Positions 29,404-37,945 of a DNA stretch of 64,000 nucleotides are shown here, piece after piece. Below the pieces are notes generated by a model. It had not been told where the DNA came from. It made no database searches and worked only from the letters and a program-made list of their open reading frames with translations. A program made the position numbers and the translations under genes. Source of the DNA: Anaerolineaceae bacterium (GTDB lineage: Bacteria; Chloroflexota; Anaerolineae; Anaerolineales; Anaerolineaceae); contig PABH01000019.1 of assembly GCA_002702705.1 (NCBI GenBank), positions 55,192-119,191 on the forward strand. The letters run 5' to 3'. How positions within the stretch are numbered: the stretch's first letter is position 1; every line of letters begins with the position of its first letter.

Positions 29404-30786
29404 TTATTTTCCTTCAAACGGTAGAATAATTCGGACGGTTGTTCCTTTCCCAGGAGAACTTTTCATTTCAATTTGTCCATTATGAGCTTCTGTTAAGGAT
29501 TTCGCAATCGATAACCCTAATCCGCTTCCTTTGTTTTCTCCACCTCGAGAAGGATCAACCTGATAAAACCGATCAAAAACGCGGTTTAAATGTTGGGGGT
29601 CTATTCCAACACCTGTATCCTGAATATCAATATGCACCATCCGCCCTTCTATTTTCGATTGAATAAAAATTTGGTTTCCTTCGGGAGTATGCCTTAGCGC
29701 ATTATCTAAAATAATTAAAATAATCTGTCTCAACCGCGTTCGATCAGCAATTACTTTACCATCTAGGGATCCTACGATTAATTTAACCTGATGAGATTCT
29801 GTGACATGAGAAAAAGATCTGAGGATGTCTTCAATAAATGGAGATAATTCGATGCTTTCTTTATTTAATTTTAATTCTTTTGCATCTAATCGGGAGAGTA
29901 ACAACAAATCTTCTACTAATTTTGTCATGTGGTCAACTTCATTAATGATATCGCCCATTAATTCGTTTTGGTGACTGGTTGGATCAATATGCCTGGTAGC
30001 CACTTCTGCACTGGCTCGAACCAAAGTTAAGGGAGTACGCAGTTCATGACTGGCATTGGCTACAAATGTTTGCTGCATATCTAATGCTCTTTGGGTTGTT
30101 TTTAATGAATTGCCCGCCATCCACCAGCTTCCGAAACCTAAAATAATAACACTAATAAAACCAATGACTAATAATCCACTCATCAATTGATTCAAAACGC
30201 GTACCTGATCTGAGATGGGTTTCCCTAATTGGATAAGTCCATATCCACTGGATGAGGGTGTGGAATAAGTTAAGATTCTTACCTTGGAGCCGTCATTCAA
30301 GGAGGCCGTGCGTATATCATATCCGTTCATGATGGCGTTATTAACGGCCTCCATATTGGGGGACATAGGTGGCTGAAATGGATTCGGGTTAAATAATAAT
30401 CGTCCATTAATATCCAGGGGAAGCACAAAAATCGATGATAATTCGCCTTCATAATTTTCCGCAAGATAAACTGGGCTTGAAGAATAATGCTCACTATCAT
30501 CTCCATCATCGTCATCATCTTTATGACTTGAAATTGTTGGTTTTGGAATAGAGAAAAAAGTATTATGTAATTCATTCCAATCTTGCTGGGCTGTGACGAG
30601 TTCGGGTGGTAATGGTGCGGCTGCTTCTTGAAACGTTAACGCCATTTTATATCTTAATGCAGCATCATTGTTATTTTGGAAATAAAAATAGATCAAAAAA
30701 TAGGAACTAAAACTTACCAAACCTGCAAATACTAATGCCACAAAAAAATACAATATTGTTAATTTTATTCGGAGTCGATTAAGCAT
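29404..30786 (-). CDS. Sensor histidine kinase with an acidic (poly-Asp) extracytoplasmic loop
   Basis: H-box ASHELRTPL, N-box LDNALRHTP, G-boxes QDTGVGI and GSGLGLSIA. The extracytoplasmic loop contains SSHKDDDDDGDDSEH (nt 30496-30519). The likely start MLNRLRIKL overlaps the response-regulator stop. Confidence 0.9.
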   Translation of the reverse strand: MLNRLRIKLTILYFFVALVFAGLVSFSSYFLIYFYFQNNNDAALRYKMALTFQEAAAPLPPELVTAQQDWNELHNTFFSIPKPTISSHKDDDDDGDDSEHYSSSPVYLAENYEGELSSIFVLPLDINGRLLFNPNPFQPPMSPNMEAVNNAIMNGYDIRTASLNDGSKVRILTYSTPSSSGYGLIQLGKPISDQVRVLNQLMSGLLVIGFISVIILGFGSWWMAGNSLKTTQRALDMQQTFVANASHELRTPLTLVRASAEVATRHIDPTSHQNELMGDIINEVDHMTKLVEDLLLLSRLDAKELKLNKESIELSPFIEDILRSFSHVTESHQVKLIVGSLDGKVIADRTRLRQIILIILDNALRHTPEGNQIFIQSKIEGRMVHIDIQDTGVGIDPQHLNRVFDRFYQVDPSRGGENKGSGLGLSIAKSLTEAHNGQIEMKSSPGKGTTVRIILPFEGK

Positions 30787-31462
30787 GATCTGGATCCAAC
30801 CTGTAACCCACACCACGGATCGTTTTAATCGGATCGGTTAAACGAGGTATATTTAATTTTTGGCGCAAATAAGAAATATATACATCGACCATTTCCGGTT
30901 TTACCTTATTTTCATAAGACCAGACATAATCAAGAATATTTTGCCGGGTTAATGTTTGACCTGGATGACGTAAAAAATATTCTAATAAATCCCATTCGGT
31001 TTTTGTTAGTTCAAGTTGTTTGTTAGCCCGGCGAACACTATGAACTCGGGTATCCATGACCAATTCCCCAACGCGGATTTCCCAGCCATCACTATCTGTT
31101 CCGTTAAATCGGCGTCCTAAAGCGCGGACTCTCGCGAGCAGTTCTTCAAATGCGAAGGGTTTAATCAAATAATCATCTGCCCCGCTATCTAAGCCGGAAA
31201 CCCGATCCTCAATTTGAGTTCGGGCAGTTAACATTAAAATGGAGATAGGGATTTTTGCCGCTCGGATAGCTCGGATGATTGAAGGACCATCTTTCCCTGG
31301 CAGCATCCAATCAATAATTGCAACATCATGAACGCCCCGCAAAGCAATTTCTAATCCGATGTCACCCTCATGAACCATATCGTAAGAAAACCCCTCTTCC
31401 TCCAATACGGTTCCAATCAGTCTTGCTAACCGTTTATCGTCCTCTATTAATAAAACCCGCAT
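30779..31462 (-). CDS. OmpR/PhoB-family response regulator
   Basis: Receiver MRVLLIEDD...DVAIIDWMLPGKDG...KPF. Output domain IKTIRGVGYRL. Confidence 0.9.
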   Translation of the reverse strand: MRVLLIEDDKRLARLIGTVLEEEGFSYDMVHEGDIGLEIALRGVHDVAIIDWMLPGKDGPSIIRAIRAAKIPISILMLTARTQIEDRVSGLDSGADDYLIKPFAFEELLARVRALGRRFNGTDSDGWEIRVGELVMDTRVHSVRRANKQLELTKTEWDLLEYFLRHPGQTLTRQNILDYVWSYENKVKPEMVDVYISYLRQKLNIPRLTDPIKTIRGVGYRLDPDHA

Positions 31463-31651
31463 CGATCATTCCCTTTCGTGTTACCGAAAATATTAAATTG
31501 AGAATAGAATATTGATTTAAAATTTTTGATTATATCTTTTAAGTATAAGACCAAAACATTGGAATTTGATTGGAAAATTGCCCCACGATTTTTAGAAAAC
31601 TCCAATCTTGATGCTCTAAACTTATTTTATCAAGCCAAATGGAGGTTTTTA

Positions 31652-32377
31652 ATGAATAAACGCATCGTGACATTTGTCTCAATTGTAATTACGGTATTTA
31701 TCTTAGGCACGGCAGCGGTCGTCATTCGTGATGTATCTGCTAAAAAAGGAGAACCCGATCCTCAGGTAATTCAAGATCAATTACTTAACAGAGAACAGGT
31801 TTATAACCAGGTTATTACGGAAGCAAATCAGCGTATCGAGCAATTAAATGCTGAATTAAATGGTGTGCAAGCAGATCAAACCAATCCCAGCAATATTAGT
31901 CCGGAAAGTGCAGCATTAATTGCATTAGCCACTACAAATTATGAAGAGCCCTTATTAAAATTACCCGAGCTGGTTGATTTTGAAGGAAAAGTTGTTTATG
32001 AAGTCCAAGTTAAAAGCGGCGTAATCTATTTAGATGCTCAAAGTGGAGAAATTGTTTTTAATGGCGTCCCTCAAAAAATTGATTCTGAACAAGCTGCTGT
32101 TTTAGCGGGTGAATATTTGGGTGGTTTGGATCCCAAATACGGGGTGGTAAAACAAAGTGTTTTAAATGGAAGTGAAGTTTTTCAGGTAACGTTTAATAAT
32201 TACATTGTCTATTTGGACCAATTTGGAAATGTCTTACAAGCTCAGGTTTTGCAATATACGGAAGTGTCCAATCCGACAAATCAATCAAATACTAATACAA
32301 GTAATAACGCCACTACCAGCAGTCATTCTTATGATGACCATGATGATGACCATGGTGATGATCATGATGATGATTAA
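31652..32377 (+). CDS. Membrane-anchored double PepSY-domain protein with a His/Asp-rich C-terminal tail
   Basis: GGAGG RBS at 31641-31645. TM anchor IVTFVSIVITVFILGTAAVVI. Two PepSY-like blocks (VVYEVQVKSGVIYLDAQSGEIV; EVFQVTFNNYIVYLDQFGNVL). The tail is SHSYDDHDDDHGDDHDDD (32321-32374). Confidence 0.7.
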   Translation: MNKRIVTFVSIVITVFILGTAAVVIRDVSAKKGEPDPQVIQDQLLNREQVYNQVITEANQRIEQLNAELNGVQADQTNPSNISPESAALIALATTNYEEPLLKLPELVDFEGKVVYEVQVKSGVIYLDAQSGEIVFNGVPQKIDSEQAAVLAGEYLGGLDPKYGVVKQSVLNGSEVFQVTFNNYIVYLDQFGNVLQAQVLQYTEVSNPTNQSNTNTSNNATTSSHSYDDHDDDHGDDHDDD

Positions 32378-32422
32378 TATAAAGAAATTGAACAACACGA
32401 ATCTAGACAGAGGAGTATAAAA

Positions 32423-32863
32423 ATGCCGATTCCCGAGAAACAAAGACCATCAAAAGTAAACCAAAAAAATAATGGTGTGAAATACTTAATTACATCGGTA
32501 TCACTTGTGGCTGTTTTAGGTTTATGGAATCAATTTTCTTCCAGCGATCAATTGGCACAAGAAGTGAGTAAAAAAAATACACCAGAACCACAGGTAAATA
32601 CGGGATATGATTTAAATTTGCCGCCAATCCCTACGGTGGTGCCGAAATACTATGATCCTTTGAAAGTCTCTTCAAACGGCGTACAGGATCAAGTTAATCA
32701 AGGACAATTGAGGCAGGTAGGCATACCAACTATACAACCAAAATCTACTCCACCGATAACCATACAGCAGGTGATTATTAGCCAACCTGGTGGAAACAAT
32801 TCCGGATCAAATAATAATACGGTTGTAAATCCACCAGTCAATAACACAGGATCATCCCATTAA
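32423..32863 (+). CDS. Hypothetical single-pass membrane protein, Pro/Asn/Gln-rich ectodomain
   Basis: One TM helix (YLITSVSLVAVLGLW). The stop overlaps the apbE start (TAATG), implying translational coupling. Confidence 0.5.
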   Translation: MPIPEKQRPSKVNQKNNGVKYLITSVSLVAVLGLWNQFSSSDQLAQEVSKKNTPEPQVNTGYDLNLPPIPTVVPKYYDPLKVSSNGVQDQVNQGQLRQVGIPTIQPKSTPPITIQQVIISQPGGNNSGSNNNTVVNPPVNNTGSSH

Positions 32864-33774
32864 TGAAAACCATTCATTTCCGTGCAATGGGTTGTAAGAT
32901 GAATGCAACCGTTTTTTCGAGCTCCACAGCAGCCGTAAACAAATTGAATCAAGTCCCTGATTGGTTTGAAGAATGGGAACAAATCCTAAGTCGTTTTCGA
33001 CCTGATAGTGAATTAAGTCTATTTAATCAAAAATTTGGACGGGTAGATTCGATAAGCCCGGTTTTTCAATCTGTATTACGAACAGCAAACCAAATGGAAT
33101 ACGAAAGCGATGGATTGGTGACACCGAAAATTCTTAACCAATTAGAAAAAATTGGATATGATCGAAGTTTTGACATGATCAAACAGAGTCAATCAAATTT
33201 TGGTAATGCCAATAGCCTTAGATCTGTGATTATTATGGAAGACAGGTCGTTTCCTACAGAAAATAACACTGTCCAATATGACTTTGGAGGTGTTGCAAAG
33301 GGATGGGCTGCCCATCAAGCGATGCAGCGATTGGAAGGATATGCTCCAACATTAGTTAACGCAGGAGGAGATATTGCAATCAGTGCATTGATGCCTGATG
33401 GAAAAGGATGGATCATAAAAATTACAGATCCGTTTGACCATGAGAAGAACGCCGCTGAATTAAGGGTTGGCCGGGGTGGTGTGGCGACATCCGGGATTGA
33501 CTATCGAATATGGCAGCAAGGTGATCATTTACGACACCATATCATTGATCCTCGTACGGGTTATCCTGCTGAAACTGACCTTATCAGTGTGACGGTTATC
33601 GCCCCAACTGTTATGGACGCGGAAATGGCTTCCAAAACTATTTTAATTTTAGGTAGTGAAGAAGGCTTAAAATGGCTGCGACTTCATTCTTCATTTGCTG
33701 GTTTTCTGATTTATAAAAATGGAGAAGTGAAAATTAGTGAAACAATGGTTCAGTATCTGAGGTGGTCAATATGA
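32863..33774 (+). CDS. apbE: FAD:protein FMN transferase (ApbE family)
   Basis: ApbE blocks FGGVAKGWAA, NAGGDIA, ATSGIDYR and HHIIDPRTGYP. No obvious N-terminal signal peptide. Confidence 0.85.
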   Translation: MKTIHFRAMGCKMNATVFSSSTAAVNKLNQVPDWFEEWEQILSRFRPDSELSLFNQKFGRVDSISPVFQSVLRTANQMEYESDGLVTPKILNQLEKIGYDRSFDMIKQSQSNFGNANSLRSVIIMEDRSFPTENNTVQYDFGGVAKGWAAHQAMQRLEGYAPTLVNAGGDIAISALMPDGKGWIIKITDPFDHEKNAAELRVGRGGVATSGIDYRIWQQGDHLRHHIIDPRTGYPAETDLISVTVIAPTVMDAEMASKTILILGSEEGLKWLRLHSSFAGFLIYKNGEVKISETMVQYLRWSI

Positions 33775-34481
33775 CAGAACAAATTATAGAAACAGAAAAT
33801 AAATTTGATGTTCGAACGGTAATGACTGTTATGGTGGCGTTGGCAGTTGGTCTGTGGGTTACAGGGTTCGTTCTTCCTGAATGGTTGCCAGGATTAAGGC
33901 AATCCATTCTGGGTGAAGATATTAAAATGTATTGGTATATATCGCGTGGCAGTGCAATTTTTGCTTATGTTTTTTTGTGGTTTTCAATGATTCTGGGTTT
34001 ATTACTATCGAACCGTTTAGCGAAAATTTGGCTTGGAGGGAGGCTAACCAATGAATTTCACAATTTTTTCAGCATATTGGGCTTGTTGTTTTCTGCCCTC
34101 CATGCTGTTATCTTAATAGGTGATTCCTATCTTGGTTTGAATTTGTTAAATGTTCTTGCGCCATTTGGCGTATCAAACTACAAGCCAGTTTGGGTTGCCC
34201 TTGGGCAAATTGGCTTATATCTATGGTTGATGTTGGTTATCAGTTTTTATATTCGAAAAAGTTTAGGCCATGCTTCTTGGCGTATGGTTCATTACAGTAG
34301 CTTTTTATTGTTTGTTTTAGCACTGTTACACGGGATATTCAGTGGTAGTGACACAGGATCAATTGGTATGGTTAGTCTTTATTGGATAAGTGCAGCCAGC
34401 ACAATGTTTTTTGTTGTTTTTCGGATTCTTACCTCTTTATTTTCTCGGATTGTAAAAGTTCAAGAAGCGATGCAAAGGTAA
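33771..34481 (+). CDS. Ferric-reductase-like transmembrane (di-heme b, MsrQ/YedZ-like) protein
   Basis: ATGA overlap with apbE and a GAGGTGG RBS. Six TM helices carry paired His residues (FHNFFSILGLLFSALHAVIL; HYSSFLLFVLALLHGIF). Confidence 0.7.
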   Translation: MTEQIIETENKFDVRTVMTVMVALAVGLWVTGFVLPEWLPGLRQSILGEDIKMYWYISRGSAIFAYVFLWFSMILGLLLSNRLAKIWLGGRLTNEFHNFFSILGLLFSALHAVILIGDSYLGLNLLNVLAPFGVSNYKPVWVALGQIGLYLWLMLVISFYIRKSLGHASWRMVHYSSFLLFVLALLHGIFSGSDTGSIGMVSLYWISAASTMFFVVFRILTSLFSRIVKVQEAMQR

Positions 34482-34652
34482 ACCACAAGGAAGTTGGAAA
34501 TCCAATAAAAAAGACCACAAGGGAATTGCGCGTAGCCAATATTGAATATCATTATATCTATATTTTATATATAGTCTTATAATAAATTTGACTTACCCGG
34601 TTTATAATATGTTATACGATCTTCTGTTTTATTGATAAGAATTGGAACAAAA

Positions 34653-35582
34653 ATGCTTACCACTCCTGACCTATTATTAACCAAGGGTTATGTTTTTGAC
34701 ATTCACCGTTTTTCCATTCATGATGGACCTGGCATTCGCACCACAATCTTTTTGAAGGGATGTCCCCTTTCCTGTGTTTGGTGCCATAATCCTGAAAGTC
34801 AATCTACTAAGCCTGAAAAAATTGTCCGCGTTTCACGTTGTATTAAGTGTGGGGCGTGTGTGGAAGTTTGCCCCGTGCATGGTATTTCCATAAATGATAG
34901 TAGGGTGGTCACTGATTTGAGTCGTTGTACGGTATGCGGAACATGTGTCGAGGTTTGTGCAACTGAAGCGAGTGAGATTGTTGGGGAAGAGACGAGCGCA
35001 GCTGATCTAGCCCAACTTATACAAAGGGATCGTATATTTTATGATGAAAGTGGGGGTGGAGTGACATTCTCGGGAGGGGAACCGTTAGTTCAAGTCAAGT
35101 TTTTACAAACTGTAATGGCATCTGTTCATACAATGGGTATCCAGACTGCGTTAGACACCTGCGGTTATGCCCATTGGGAGGCATTTCTGAAAGTATTACC
35201 CTTTACTGATCTGATATTATTTGACATCAAGGTGCTTGACGATCAAAAACACAAACAATTCACAGGGGTTTCTAATCAATTAATTTTGGATAACCTGCAA
35301 AAACTGAACCAGCAAGGAAAAAAAATCTGGTTACGATTTCCAGTTATTCCTGGGATTAATGATGATGTAGATAATCTAACCGAGATCGTTGATTTGGCAA
35401 AAATGTATTCACATATAGAGCGTTTAAGTTTACTTCCCTATCACAAAGCTGCAGTAAAAAAGTATGAAGGATTGGGTTTGAATTATTGTTTGGATGATAT
35501 TGAGTCGCCCAGTGAAACCAGGATGGATGAATTGGCAGGGTGGTTTCAGCAATCAGGTTTGCCGGCTGTGGTGGGAGGATAA
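34653..35582 (+). CDS. Glycyl-radical enzyme activating protein (radical SAM plus two ferredoxin-like clusters)
   Basis: DIHRFSIHDGPGIRT, radical SAM motif CPLSCVWCHNPE, auxiliary clusters CIKCGACVEVCP and CTVCGTCVEVCA. The start could be 34632 or 34653. Confidence 0.9.
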   Translation: MLTTPDLLLTKGYVFDIHRFSIHDGPGIRTTIFLKGCPLSCVWCHNPESQSTKPEKIVRVSRCIKCGACVEVCPVHGISINDSRVVTDLSRCTVCGTCVEVCATEASEIVGEETSAADLAQLIQRDRIFYDESGGGVTFSGGEPLVQVKFLQTVMASVHTMGIQTALDTCGYAHWEAFLKVLPFTDLILFDIKVLDDQKHKQFTGVSNQLILDNLQKLNQQGKKIWLRFPVIPGINDDVDNLTEIVDLAKMYSHIERLSLLPYHKAAVKKYEGLGLNYCLDDIESPSETRMDELAGWFQQSGLPAVVGG

Positions 35583-35584
35583 AA

Positions 35585-37945
35585 TTGAATGAACGTGTAA
35601 AAAAATTAAGGGAATACAGCTTGACCATTCCAGCGACTTTATCTTCCGAAAGGGCCGTATTAATGACCCAGTTTTATCAACAGTTAAATCAACTTGTTTC
35701 TAAACCTGTGGAAAGAGCCCTATCTTTTGCTTTTTTAATGGAACACAAATCGATTTATATCCATCCCGGAGAATTGATTGTTGGTGAAAAAGGAGATCTC
35801 CCCAAAGCAGCACCAACTTTTCCGGAGTTATGCTGCCATTCGCTTAATGATCTGGAAATTTTAGATAGCCGAGAAAAGATTCCTTTTAAAGTTTCTTCCG
35901 ATACCTTAACTTTATTTCAGAATGAAATTATCCCGTTTTGGACTGGCAAAACCATGCGGGAACGTATTTTTACTGAAATGAGCGATGATTGGAAAGCAGC
36001 TTATGAAGCGGGAATATTTACCGAATTTATGGAGCAGCGTGCACCCGGGCATACTGTATTGGATGATAAGATCTATCATTTCGGTATGTTTGATTTTGTG
36101 GAAAAAATTGATCACCGTCTGCAAACATTGGATTACCTGAAAAATCCACGCGCATATGATCAGCAAGAAGAATTAAAAGCCATGCGGATTACTGCCCTGG
36201 CCATCATTCGTTTTGCGGAACGCCATGCTGAGGAAGCCCAACGCCTGGCCCTGATTGAAAAAGACCCGCAACGTAAAAAAGAACTGGAAAAGATAAATAA
36301 AATTTGCCGCCGAGTACCTGGCAATAAACCTGAAACTATGCATGAAGCCTTGCAGTATTATTGGTTTGTGCATTTAGGTGTTACCACAGAGCTAAATACT
36401 TGGGATGCTTTTGACCCGGGGAGACTCGACCAACATCTCTACCCCTTTTATGAAAAAGAAATTAAAACTGGTCAAATTACTCACGAACAAGCAGAAGAGT
36501 TATTACAGTGTTTCTGGATCAAGTTTAATAACCAGCCGGCGCCGCCCAAGGTAGGTGTCACGGCAGCAGAAAGTGGTACCTATACTGATTTTGCCCAGAT
36601 TAATTTGGGTGGTGTGCAGGCGGATGGTTCTGATGGTGTCAACGAGATCACATACCTGCTGCTCGATGTGGTTGAAGAGATGCGGCTTTTGCAACCGAGT
36701 GCATCCATTCAGGTCAGCAAAAAAAATCCAGATCAATTTATTACACGAGCTGCCCAAATTATCAGGACTGGCTTTGGGCAGCCATCCATATTTAATGCGG
36801 ATGCTATTATTCAGGAATTACAGCGTATGGGTAAATCCCTGCTGGATGCCAGAAACAGCGGCTCCAGCGGTTGTGTGGAGGTGGGAGCCTTTGGTAAGGA
36901 AAATTATAATCTAACCGGTTATTTTAATATTCCAAAGATTTTAGAATTAACCCTGCATAATGGTTTAGATCCTCGGACCGGAAAACAACTGGGTCCTCGT
37001 ACAGGCGATCCATTGAATTTTGCTAATTTTGAAAATTTATTCGAAGCCTTTTCCGAACAAATGCGTTATTTTATTGATATCAAGGTGCGTGGTAATCAAA
37101 TCATTGAACGTTTATATGCGCGTTATATGCCATGTCCGTTTTTATCTTTGTTGATTGATGACTGTATTGAAAAAGCAATGGATTACCACGAAGGGGGCGC
37201 GCGTTACAACACCACTTATATTCAAGGGGTGGGAATTGGCTCCATCACAGATCAACTTTCCGCAATTAAGACTCATGTGTTTGAAAAAAATTCGCTGACG
37301 ATGAAACAATTATTGAATGCTTTAGCAAATAATTTTGAAGGTCATGAACGTACCCGTCAGCTTCTGTTAAATCGAACTCCCCGTTATGGTAATGACGATG
37401 AGGCTGCTGATGAATTGATGCAGCAGGTATTTGAGTTATTTTTTGATTCGATTGATGGAAGGCCAAATACAAAAGGTGGTACCTATCATATTAATCTCTT
37501 GCCCACAACATGTCATGTTTATTTTGGCTCCGTGATGAATGCATCCCCGGAAGGTCGTTTGGCAGGAACACCTTTATCTGAGGGGATTTCTCCAGTGCAA
37601 GGTGCTGATCGAAAGGGTCCGACAGCTGTTTTACGGTCTGCCGCCAAGTTGGATCATTTGCGAACAGGGGGGACCTTGTTAAATCAGAAATTCTCGCCAA
37701 ATCTGATGAAGGGGGAAGCTGGCCTTATGCTGCTGACACAATTGGTGCGAGCTTATTTTAAAATGGACGGTCACCATATCCAATTTAACGTAGTAGATGC
37801 GGAAACTTTAAAACAAGCACAGAAAAACCCGCAAGATTACCGAGATTTAATAGTGCGGGTGGCGGGATACAGTGATTATTTTTGTGACCTCAGCCCAGCT
37901 TTACAAAACGAGATTATTCAGCGCACGGAGCACGAATCTTTTTAA
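35585..37945 (+). CDS. Glycyl radical enzyme, PFL2 / glycerol dehydratase / hydroxyproline dehydratase-like family
   Basis: Probable TTG start 3 nt after the activase stop. Cys loop GSSGCVEVG (Cys codon 36872-36874, Glu two residues later). Glycyl radical motif RVAGYSDYF (Gly codon 37865-37867), 25 aa from the C-terminus. About 786 aa. Confidence 0.9.
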   Translation: MNERVKKLREYSLTIPATLSSERAVLMTQFYQQLNQLVSKPVERALSFAFLMEHKSIYIHPGELIVGEKGDLPKAAPTFPELCCHSLNDLEILDSREKIPFKVSSDTLTLFQNEIIPFWTGKTMRERIFTEMSDDWKAAYEAGIFTEFMEQRAPGHTVLDDKIYHFGMFDFVEKIDHRLQTLDYLKNPRAYDQQEELKAMRITALAIIRFAERHAEEAQRLALIEKDPQRKKELEKINKICRRVPGNKPETMHEALQYYWFVHLGVTTELNTWDAFDPGRLDQHLYPFYEKEIKTGQITHEQAEELLQCFWIKFNNQPAPPKVGVTAAESGTYTDFAQINLGGVQADGSDGVNEITYLLLDVVEEMRLLQPSASIQVSKKNPDQFITRAAQIIRTGFGQPSIFNADAIIQELQRMGKSLLDARNSGSSGCVEVGAFGKENYNLTGYFNIPKILELTLHNGLDPRTGKQLGPRTGDPLNFANFENLFEAFSEQMRYFIDIKVRGNQIIERLYARYMPCPFLSLLIDDCIEKAMDYHEGGARYNTTYIQGVGIGSITDQLSAIKTHVFEKNSLTMKQLLNALANNFEGHERTRQLLLNRTPRYGNDDEAADELMQQVFELFFDSIDGRPNTKGGTYHINLLPTTCHVYFGSVMNASPEGRLAGTPLSEGISPVQGADRKGPTAVLRSAAKLDHLRTGGTLLNQKFSPNLMKGEAGLMLLTQLVRAYFKMDGHHIQFNVVDAETLKQAQKNPQDYRDLIVRVAGYSDYFCDLSPALQNEIIQRTEHESF

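Follow-up and report, generated by a model that had tools for sequence, protein, structure and literature searches.

The window analysed here is a stretch of 64,000 nucleotides from the assembly GCA_002702705.1 of Anaerolineaceae bacterium (contig PABH01000019.1, positions 55,192 to 119,191), and all positions given below are counted within it. It contains a locus of six open reading frames (ORFs), in which a sensor histidine kinase (HK) and response regulator (RR) pair on the minus strand faces a four-gene operon, P3-P4-apbE-FRD, on the plus strand (Table 1). P3 and P4 are predicted membrane-anchored proteins, apbE encodes a member of the FAD:protein FMN transferase family, and FRD stands for a ferric-reductase-domain protein, a predicted cytochrome b with six transmembrane (TM) segments. 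Our preferred reading, to which we give a probability of about 0.45, is that the locus is a self-contained module, regulated by its two-component system (TCS), that would export electrons by way of FRD, a flavinylated P4 and a cation bound by P3.

The HK/RR pair and the operon diverge across an intergenic region of 189 bp. The stop codon of P4 overlaps the start codon of apbE (TAATG at 32861-32865), apbE in turn overlaps FRD (ATGA at 33771-33774), and the operon is translationally coupled. An earlier sequence-only reading of this DNA had listed the same six genes and pointed to both overlaps; the ORFs are all present as it described them, and the overlaps are real. P3 starts at ATG 31652, which is preceded by GGAGG at 31641-31645, and not at TTG 31526. 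The longest FRD ORF begins at GTG 33762, with ATG 33771 as the likely start.

Table 1. Genes and sequence features of the locus (window positions; aa, amino acids)
Feature	Position	Strand	Description
Sensor histidine kinase (HK)	29404..30816	-	470 aa from GTG; two TM segments; HisKA + HATPase_c
Acidic patch KDDDDDGDDSEH	30487..30522	-	HK residues 99-110, in a variable insertion of the sensor loop
Response regulator (RR), OmpR/PhoB-type	30779..31462	-	227 aa; Response_reg E = 4.6e-23, Trans_reg_C E = 2.8e-25
Conserved block AGTATAAG	31542..31549	-	family consensus AGTnTAGC; box-anchored alignment of 33 loci
Direct-repeat box TGGAATTTGATTGGAA	31560..31575	+	TGGAA-N3-GATTGGAA, half-sites 11 bp apart; putative RR site
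Inverted half-site TCCAATC	31601..31607	+	family consensus TTCCAATC (reverse complement of GATTGGAA); follows the box at a distance of ~25 bp
P3, membrane-anchored tandem-PepSY protein	31652..32377	+	241 aa
P3 C-terminal Asp/His tail SHSYDDHDDDHGDDHDDD	32321..32374	+	conserved in composition in the orthologues
P4, small anchored protein	32423..32863	+	146 aa; no curated family
P4 extreme C-terminal motif T-G-S-S-H	32846..32860	+	candidate flavinylation site; family P-V-T-x-T-[G/R]-S-S-[R/K/H]0-1
ApbE-family FAD:protein FMN transferase	32863..33774	+	303 aa; leaderless; PF02424 E = 7.8e-51
FRD, six-TM cytochrome b (MsrQ/NOX/STEAP-like)	33771..34481	+	236 aa from the likely ATG start

Conservation of the cassette in Chloroflexota

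A scan of species-representative genomes detected relatives of FRD in at least 282 of them, and the loci of the best 80 were compared. All of these are from Chloroflexota except for one contig labelled Bacteroidota. ApbE is encoded directly upstream of FRD in 71 of the 75 loci with enough upstream DNA, 67 loci have a P3 homologue and 64 a P4-type gene, and the P4 stop codon abuts or overlaps the apbE start throughout. Orthologues of the divergent HK/RR pair (RR above 270 bits, HK above 290) accompany about 31 of the 80 species loci, in Anaerolineae, Roseiflexus and Chloroflexus; the HK orthologues in these roughly 31 loci score 290-510 bits. The check that the sequence-only reading had proposed, conservation of the six-gene arrangement in related genomes, has thus come out in its favour, from Anaerolineae to Chloroflexia; all six genes are so arranged in Chloroflexus islandicus isl-2 (L052), for example.

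The distribution of the TCS on the ApbE tree is not random. Every basal branch consists of loci with a linked TCS, whereas a single derived clade contains about 20 of the 23 unlinked ones; none of 500 label shuffles produced clustering as tight. The six-gene layout therefore looks ancestral. Within the order the cassette is patchy, being found in 15 of 61 genomes. Among the 80 loci, no conserved transporter, NAD(P)H-binding donor or reductase was found next to the cassette beyond clade-level synteny.

A few loci depart from the pattern. The contig labelled Bacteroidota (locus L025, JBLMZU010000762.1, from a metagenome-assembled genome) nests in the Chloroflexota ApbE clade next to an Anaerolineales locus, and it is probably a mis-binned contig. 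Two loci (L040 and L075) encode a lone FRD homologue with an N-terminal extension and no upstream P3, P4 or ApbE, so that the FRD family exists outside the cassette as well. In another (L062), a 600-aa ApbE frame appears to run across the FRD position; either a fusion of ApbE with FRD or a frameshift error in the sequence may explain this. Downstream of the cassette in the window, positions 34632-37945 encode a glycyl-radical enzyme and its activase, which are not conserved with the cassette. The former is a trans-4-hydroxy-L-proline dehydratase (NCBIfam NF043068, 1302.7 bits against a cut-off of 1100), and the activase, at 393.5 bits, falls slightly under its 425-bit NCBIfam cut-off.

Probable two-component control of the operon

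The kinase carries HisKA and HATPase_c domains and the regulator a receiver and a winged-helix domain (Pfam), which together define a TCS of the OmpR/PhoB type. The H-box of HK (SHELRTP) and the phosphoacceptor region of RR (receiver Asp in AIIDWMLPG) can be read directly from the sequence. A direct-repeat box of the kind found upstream of P3 is the classic binding-site architecture of OmpR/PhoB-family regulators.

This box was first betrayed by spurious upstream ORFs that share an "LE-K-DWK" peptide in many loci; it had been missed when the intergenic region of the window was searched for repeats on its own, and comparison across loci revealed it. It lies on the operon strand within the divergent intergenic region in 32/32 TCS-linked loci, as against 4/40 unlinked ones, and one of those four is a truncated TCS locus. 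The genome of 5.9 Mb contains two exact copies where 0.24 would be expected. The second is inside the coding sequence of a membrane protein, so the copy at the locus is the sole exact intergenic one. Copies with one mismatch number 26, all but three of them within long ORFs. A wider RR regulon was considered and rejected on these grounds, since nearly all of the other exact and one-mismatch boxes are inside long ORFs. Given its uniqueness as an intergenic copy, and a repeat architecture typical of this regulator family, RR appears to be dedicated to this locus.

Local two-component control, which the sequence-only reading had suggested, is well supported by the strong bias of the box towards linked loci and by its single intergenic occurrence, although binding of RR is predicted from the footprint in the divergent promoter and from the conserved layout. 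The TCS might conceivably be a mere neighbour with no regulatory tie to the operon, as about half of the cassettes, mostly those of one derived clade, have no linked TCS. This we regard as very improbable: wherever the TCS is linked the box is present and oriented with the operon, the linkage has been maintained across two classes, the genome offers no other intergenic copy, and the HK sensor and P3 have modules in common (see below).

Other elements of the intergenic region are less readily interpreted. The reverse complement of the AGTATAAG block holds a TAnACT hexamer resembling a -10 element, which is possibly part of an RR/HK promoter. At several loci (L001-L004 and others) the AGTnTAGC block lies about 8-25 nt from the RR start codon; with so short a distance, the RR transcript would have a very short leader or none. 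The spacings of the conserved blocks are unlike 17 ± 1, so that no sigma-70 hexamers could be assigned to them, and a scan for consensus promoters and terminators gave as many matches as expected from shuffled sequence.

Named TCS families were tried as a clue to the signal and rejected, as RppAB/NrsRS, PhoBR, CopRS/CusRS and HprRS all fall under the NCBIfam cut-offs. The best match of RR is to RppA (205.6 bits, cut-off 250), and its other matches include cztR_silR_copR (195.8 bits, cut-off 279) and HprR (170.6 bits, cut-off 353); every score of HK against the NCBIfam equivalogs is likewise below cut-off.

FRD as a predicted di-haem cytochrome

The sequence-only reading had called FRD ferric-reductase-like, a label that is established by way of the orthologues and the fold; the window protein taken singly has no Pfam match even at E = 10. 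Ten of 18 close family members match PF01794 (best E = 8e-8), as do many database homologues in this large and mainly chloroflexotal family. The AlphaFold2 (AF2) model contains six TM helices (pTM 0.70), and its top Foldseek matches are the TM domain of NOX5 (5o0t, probability 0.97), STEAP4 (0.75) and STEAP1 (0.66). A profile search against PDB sequences returned only weak SpNOX matches (E = 1.8). Four His residues are invariant, arranged as H100/H114 (H-x13-H) and H177/H190 (H-x12-H) in predicted TM3 and TM5. These spacings and fold matches bear out the expectation that the protein is a di-haem transmembrane electron carrier, and by every test available, all of them on sequence or predicted structure, FRD is a di-haem cytochrome of the FRD/MsrQ type with predicted haem binding.

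Most of the invariant residues are in the extracytoplasmic loops, and the most conserved surface of the protein faces outward. No conserved Ser/Thr motif was found in the short cytoplasmic loops. The genome encodes MenA (252 bits, cut-off 102), the presence of which makes menaquinol a plausible electron donor.

An ApbE without a known substrate

The ApbE protein is a member of its family, with 173.6 bits against the PF02424 cut-off of 25.6 and matches at E ~1e-20 to the PDB ApbEs 3pnd, 4xdt and 6nxi. It is the only ApbE in the genome, which is 96.8% complete. Searches of this genome for the canonical ApbE substrates FMN_bind, RnfD/NqrB and DUF2271 found none; a search for DUF3570 was uninformative, as the control gave no signal. 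The same situation recurs in the order. Of 61 genomes sampled, 15 have an ApbE, and FMN_bind is absent from 12 of these; the remaining three have an FMN_bind gene next to a second, canonical and higher-scoring ApbE. Judged by these genomes, a known substrate is systematically missing for ApbEs of the cassette type. The general rule that ApbE flavinylates extracytoplasmic redox proteins, on which the sequence-only reading had relied, is consequently not simply transferable to this locus, where the clade is leaderless and canonical substrates are missing from the genome.

P4 as a candidate flavin acceptor

P4 offers a candidate for the missing substrate, one not suspected in the sequence-only reading. 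None of 41 family members matches any Pfam family and NCBIfam gave only noise; the window's P4 is likewise unmatched. The protein consists of a basic N-terminus, one TM segment and a disordered linker rich in Pro, Gly and Ala (60-130 residues in the orthologues), and it is predicted to have its N-terminus inside and its C-terminus outside. Lys and Arg average 3.4 on the N-terminal flank of the TM segment and 1.3 on the C-terminal flank, with the N-terminal side richer in 50 of 64 proteins; the tail is accordingly placed outside by the positive-inside rule.

The only conserved features are the basic N-terminus with its TM segment, the linker and a motif at the extreme C-terminus; mean column identity in the rest of the protein is 22%. 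Counted from the candidate acceptor, the motif has Thr at -3 in 60/63 orthologues, Ser at -1 in 57/63 and Ser at position 0 in 63/63, with 0-2 residues after it. The window's P4 ends in N-T-G-S-S-H. Ser or Thr at -3 and at the acceptor position is what a flavinylation motif requires. The canonical ApbE motif is D-x-x-[S/T]-G-A-[S/T], in which substitution of Asp, Gly or Ala reduces flavinylation and does not abolish it, and ApbE accepts tags of seven residues, best at protein termini (PMC12052999). Moreover, unstructured C-terminal extensions of FMN_red proteins are proven flavinylation substrates (bioRxiv 10.1101/2024.03.13.584918).

Taken together, the orphan status of ApbE, the strict coupling of the two genes and the resemblance of the motif make it somewhat better than an even bet that P4 is the flavin acceptor of ApbE and serves as a carrier with no flavin-binding domain. 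Two TCS-linked cassettes that lack apbE (L061, at about -1019 to +704 relative to FRD, and L074) provide a natural test, and its outcome favours this reading: P4 runs straight into FRD, its tail is kept, and an ApbE is encoded elsewhere in the genome. Among the ApbE copies in the genome of the former (G061), one has a twin-arginine signal (L081) and another belongs to a second ApbE-FRD pair (L083).

Three further ideas about P4 were examined. Export as a twin-arginine (Tat) substrate, by which an exported tail could be squared with a cytoplasmic ApbE, was rejected, as RR/KR-W-L sequences occur in few orthologues and not in the window's P4. A P4-ApbE fusion made by programmed frameshifting or readthrough was rejected as well, since the distance and frame between stop and start vary among loci. 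A strict tail pattern found no second P4-type protein in the genome, but this pattern also missed the window's own NNTGSSH, which limits the power of the scan.

Several observations weigh against flavinylation of P4. Its motif has Val or Ala at -6 in place of Asp, and Ser in place of Ala at -1. Gly is found at -2 in only 23 of the 63 orthologues (the window's P4 included), and Arg in 22. The acceptor position has Ser without exception, a less favourable residue for canonical ApbEs (PMC12052999). The enzyme is also unusual. Residues S209, H225 and E253 are spaced as the triad S241/H257/D285 of Vibrio cholerae ApbE, and among 60 clade members S209 and H225 never vary. All 60 have Glu (E253) for the Asp of the triad, and Lys (K257) where canonical ApbEs have a Thr four positions further on. 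The stretch formed by residues 253-257 (33619-33633) reads 'A-E-x-A-A-K' where the canonical form is 'A-D-A-x-x-T', the Thr being a metal-site residue. On this pattern, the Glu/Lys clade may be a mechanistically distinct ApbE subfamily.

The remaining difficulty is one of topology. All of the ApbE orthologues start with M-x(2-5)-F-R-A-M-G, have a low maximum of 15-residue hydropathy at the N-terminus and show no signal peptide or lipobox. The enzyme is predicted to be cytoplasmic, since no orthologue has a hydrophobic leader, and the tail of P4 is predicted to be outside. Three resolutions are possible: the tail could be flavinylated in the cytoplasm prior to its export, ApbE could have an unconventional location, or ApbE could play some non-transferase role at the cytoplasmic face of FRD.

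The last of these leads to an alternative in which P4 is not flavinylated at all. ApbE would be a cytoplasmic FAD-binding or FAD-pyrophosphatase partner of the inner face of FRD, taking the place of the flavin domain of NOX, or would act on some other cytoplasmic target, and P4 would have a part in structure or assembly, its T-x-S-S end docking on FRD or P3. Cytoplasmic ApbEs are documented (PMC12052999), and the ATGA overlap of the apbE and FRD genes suggests a coupling of the two proteins. The lack of an export signal in every ApbE orthologue, the altered active site and the only partly canonical motif of P4 would also fit. Yet no ApbE is known to play a redox role, the catalytic Ser and His never vary in this clade, and the genome contains no canonical cytoplasmic substrate (FMN_bind being absent). 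In FRD, moreover, the cytoplasmic loops have no conserved Ser/Thr motif, and the most conserved surface is on the other side of the membrane. We consider this alternative unlikely.

P3, the kinase sensor and a possible cation

The AF2 model of P3 (pLDDT 84.9) has a TM segment at residues 3-31, a long helix at 37-73, two alpha+beta4 modules at 84-137 and 145-199 and a disordered tail at 200-241. Its top Foldseek matches are tandem PepSY-like structures (3elg, 3db7 and 2gu3, the last being Bacillus subtilis YpmB; probability 0.97-0.99). The PepSY label given in the sequence-only reading is borne out by the fold and by the orthologues, 16 of 41 of which match PF03413 (best E = 1.6e-22); the window's P3 itself is below threshold (E = 0.019, 15.7 bits against a 24-bit cut-off). 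By these two lines of comparison P3 is a PepSY (PF03413) protein. The accompanying statement that PepSY domains go with ferric reductases does not carry over so easily, as it mixes soluble PepSY (PF03413), to which P3 belongs, with PepSY_TM proteins.

The Asp/His-rich tail of P3 has exactly the coordinates that had been given for it, 32321-32374. Such tails are rare: only 2 of the 3,680 genome ORFs of at least 200 aa have at least 12 Asp, Glu or His among their last 18 residues. The last 20 residues of the orthologues contain on average 8.6 Asp/Glu and 2.2 His, and the tail ends in Asp in 43/49 orthologues and in Asp-Asp in 36/49. It is the composition that is conserved and not the sequence, in cassettes with and without a TCS. 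In the genome scan, the only other acidic tail with His belongs to a 147-aa SlyD-type FKBP-like protein (contig C9, 88485-88925, minus strand), the Asp/Glu/His-rich end of which reads ...DDEDFEDDDDESSDNHHH.

The kinase has TM segments at about residues 15-45 and 207-236, and the loop of about 160 aa between them contains an acidic patch, which must be extracytoplasmic because of its position between the two segments. The sequence-only reading had noticed an acidic segment in this loop; the interval that it gave, 30496-30519, covers only the DDDDDGDD core of a patch that extends further on both sides (Table 1). Twelve-residue segments with at least eight Asp/Glu occur in 0.79% of the same 3,680 ORFs. 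The patch is within a variable insertion flanked by two conserved sensor elements, and most of the Anaerolineae HK orthologues have 6-10 Asp/Glu per 12-mer at the same insertion. In the Chloroflexaceae orthologues (L038, L041, L045, L052, L064 and L074), this position is instead taken by a true PepSY domain (29.9-37.4 bits, cut-off 24). Thus, as far as these alignments go, the insertion consists of one or the other of the two modules of P3, an acidic patch in some orthologues and a PepSY domain in others. The earlier remark on matching segments in the kinase loop and the P3 tail gains weight from this, and both segments are conserved in composition. The shared modules suggest that HK and P3 have a ligand in common or interact with one another.

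The P3 tail would most likely bind a cation. Its alternating Asp and His point to a transition metal, and the company of FRD and a flavin to one that can be reduced, Fe(III) or Cu(II). That the module senses a cation and reduces a metal is the leading hypothesis for its function. Two points count against it: the surroundings of the cassette contain no conserved metal gene, be it a transporter or another, and no conserved Fur-type site, and acidic low-complexity tails can have other roles.

The same hardware might instead serve envelope redox repair or defence against oxidants, the tethered flavin acting on oxidised envelope components or on the oxidants themselves and not on metals, with HK sensing redox or envelope stress and the acidic segments being structural or binding Ca or Mg, as in PhoQ. 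Escherichia coli provides the precedent in hprRS/msrPQ, where MsrQ is encoded beside an OmpR-type TCS; HprR is among the NCBIfam matches of RR, albeit with 170.6 bits under a cut-off of 353, and the fold matches of P3 include periplasmic PepSY-like proteins that are Ca-regulated or Ca-binding (3db7, 3u1w). The absence of a conserved metal transporter near the cassette is also easier to understand on this view. However, the cassette has no conserved reductase partner, whether a molybdoenzyme of the MsrP type or another, the alternation of His and Asp in the P3 tail is more typical of transition-metal than of Ca or Mg binding, and among the conserved residues of the HK loop no redox-sensing Cys or Met motif was seen. 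A repair function by analogy with E. coli is given a rather small chance.

A model for the module

In the TCS-regulated electron export that we favour, phosphorylation of RR by HK would lead to binding at TGGAA-N3-GATTGGAA and thereby control P3-P4-apbE-FRD, and probably HK/RR too; comparative genomics provides the link. FRD would carry electrons from the membrane or cytoplasmic side, probably from menaquinol, through its predicted haems to the conserved outer face. ApbE would move FMN from FAD onto the final Ser in the T-x-T-[G/R]-S-S motif of P4, and the flavin, on its long and flexible membrane-anchored tether, would take electrons from the outer haem. P3, anchored beside P4, would offer two PepSY modules and an Asp/His tail that holds a cation. 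In the last step, the least secure, the tethered flavin would reduce this P3-held cation, for which Fe(III) leads and Cu(II) is possible, and the acidic insertion of HK would sense the same cation.

A different destination for the electrons would turn the module into a respiratory outlet for extracellular electron transfer, like that of Listeria (Ndh2/EetAB/FmnB/PplA). Menaquinol electrons would pass through FRD and the P4 tether to insoluble acceptors or humics, and P3 would be a scaffold. MenA is present, the patchy occurrence in 15 of 61 genomes of the order is what accessory metabolic traits show, and a linker of 60-130 residues could span a thick wall; Chloroflexota are, on the outline given in a recent preprint, increasingly seen as monoderm (bioRxiv 10.1101/2025.08.19.671072). 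Against it, each carrier would have a single flavin, a relay of several flavins or haems is missing, and the cassette is not linked to any dedicated gene for an NADH dehydrogenase or for quinone biosynthesis. A dedicated envelope-sensing TCS and a metal-type tail also suit acquisition or homeostasis better than bulk respiration, and we view such an outlet, which is proposed by analogy, as having little probability.

The most specific version of the electron-export scheme combines its steps into a single claim. P4 would carry a covalent flavin with no domain to hold it, the first natural protein to do so, a single FMN being esterified to the C-terminal Ser of a disordered tether of 60-130 residues. 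It would be loaded in the cytoplasm before export by a Glu/Lys ApbE and would pass electrons from the outer haem of FRD to the metal on the P3 tail, all monitored by a PepSY/acidic kinase. As a whole this chain is doubtful.

Extracytosolic electron transfer based on flavinylation has only recently been recognized; it is widespread, and some ApbE substrates are still unidentified (PMC8238504). The cassette offers a testable candidate for such a missing substrate, in the form of a bare C-terminal peptide and not a folded flavin-binding domain, and, with an ApbE that lacks an export signal, it poses the question of where flavinylation takes place. The regulator, apparently a dedicated one, and its defined operator give an experimental handle on the inducing signal. 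If P4 were confirmed as the acceptor, the list of ApbE substrates would grow, a natural counterpart of the engineered flavin-tag would be known, and the orphan ApbE of Chloroflexota that are abundant in wastewater, sediments and hot-spring mats would have a function. If cytoplasmic loading turned out to be true, flavinylation before export would be a real route of biogenesis. If the module were a metal reductase, it would be a candidate route of iron acquisition or metal homeostasis in a phylum where such routes are poorly known.

Relationship to known systems

The regulatory half of the locus has two parallels. In E. coli, the OmpR-family TCS HprSR (YedVW), which responds to HOCl and H2O2, is divergent from msrPQ (yedYZ) and controls it. 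As in the cassette, a TCS stands beside an operon with a di-haem membrane subunit of the FRD family that feeds an extracytoplasmic acceptor, TCS control and the acceptor being predictions in the present case. The E. coli system differs in that the partner of MsrQ is the molybdoenzyme MsrP and that ApbE and flavinylation are not involved; the RR of the cassette is far below the HprR cut-off, as noted above, and its box is another. The second parallel is with cation-sensing kinases that have acidic periplasmic motifs, such as PhoQ with its acidic patch and PmrB with its ExxE sites for Fe(III). These share with HK a cluster of carboxylates in the extracytoplasmic loop of an OmpR-partnered kinase. 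In the cassette, however, the patch is a low-complexity insertion that gives way to a PepSY domain in some orthologues, and no sequence homology of the HK sensor domain was detected.

P4 is best compared with two systems in which flavin is attached to a tethered or minimal substrate. The engineered flavin-tag (Tong et al. 2021, reviewed in PMC12052999) has established that a short unstructured terminal peptide suffices, and P4 would be its natural counterpart. The tag uses the canonical D-x-x-S-G-A-T, whereas P4 has P-V-T-x-T-[G/R]-S-S with a Ser acceptor at the extreme C-terminus. In Listeria monocytogenes, as summarized in the same review (PMC12052999), the ApbE-type enzyme FmnB attaches FMN to the membrane-tethered surface protein PplA, from which electrons go to external acceptors in a monoderm envelope, an arrangement that is proposed for the cassette. 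According to that summary, PplA is a lipoprotein with folded FMN_bind domains, FmnB is exported, and the membrane step is carried out by EetA/EetB/Ndh2 with a dedicated quinone and not by an FRD cytochrome.

The clusters of PepSY-like (FoxB/VciB), DUF2271 and ApbE proteins described by Meheust et al. (2021) resemble the cassette in combining ApbE, a di-haem membrane protein and extracytoplasmic PepSY-type modules, with a suspected role in ferric reduction. In those clusters PepSY is within the haem-binding TM protein (PF03929) and DUF2271 is a folded substrate; in the cassette, PepSY (PF03413) is on a separate single-span protein and DUF2271 is missing.

The closest relatives are the 'MsrQ-like' flavinylation clusters (Meheust et al. 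2021, eLife, PMC8238504), models for which have been presented by Huang et al. (2024, bioRxiv 10.1101/2024.03.13.584918). In both cases apbE is beside a six-TM di-haem cytochrome of the PF01794 type and a membrane-anchored extracytosolic flavin carrier, which in our case is a candidate. The role proposed for these clusters is transmembrane electron transfer, sometimes iron reduction (PMC8238504). They are mainly actinobacterial and have an FMN_bind substrate; an NAD-binding domain or a NuoF-like donor is often present too, and VIT1 sometimes. The cassette, in contrast, has no FMN_bind in the genome and no NAD domain, its candidate acceptor is domain-less and its ApbE leaderless, and it adds a dedicated TCS and a tandem-PepSY partner that ends in an acidic/His tail.

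The operational definition of an MsrQ-like cluster (Meheust et al. 2021) is a PF01794 gene clustered with an FMN_bind gene or with an ApbE gene that bears a signal peptide. The cassette falls outside it on both counts, with a leaderless adjacent ApbE and no FMN_bind. The survey dropped genes without signal peptides, and its authors noted that genomes with an orphan apbE imply unidentified substrates (PMC8238504); this exclusion accounts for the absence of the cassette from the published catalogue. Our verdict is that the cassette works like the MsrQ-like class while lying outside its definition, and that it represents an undescribed variant of flavin-based electron export.

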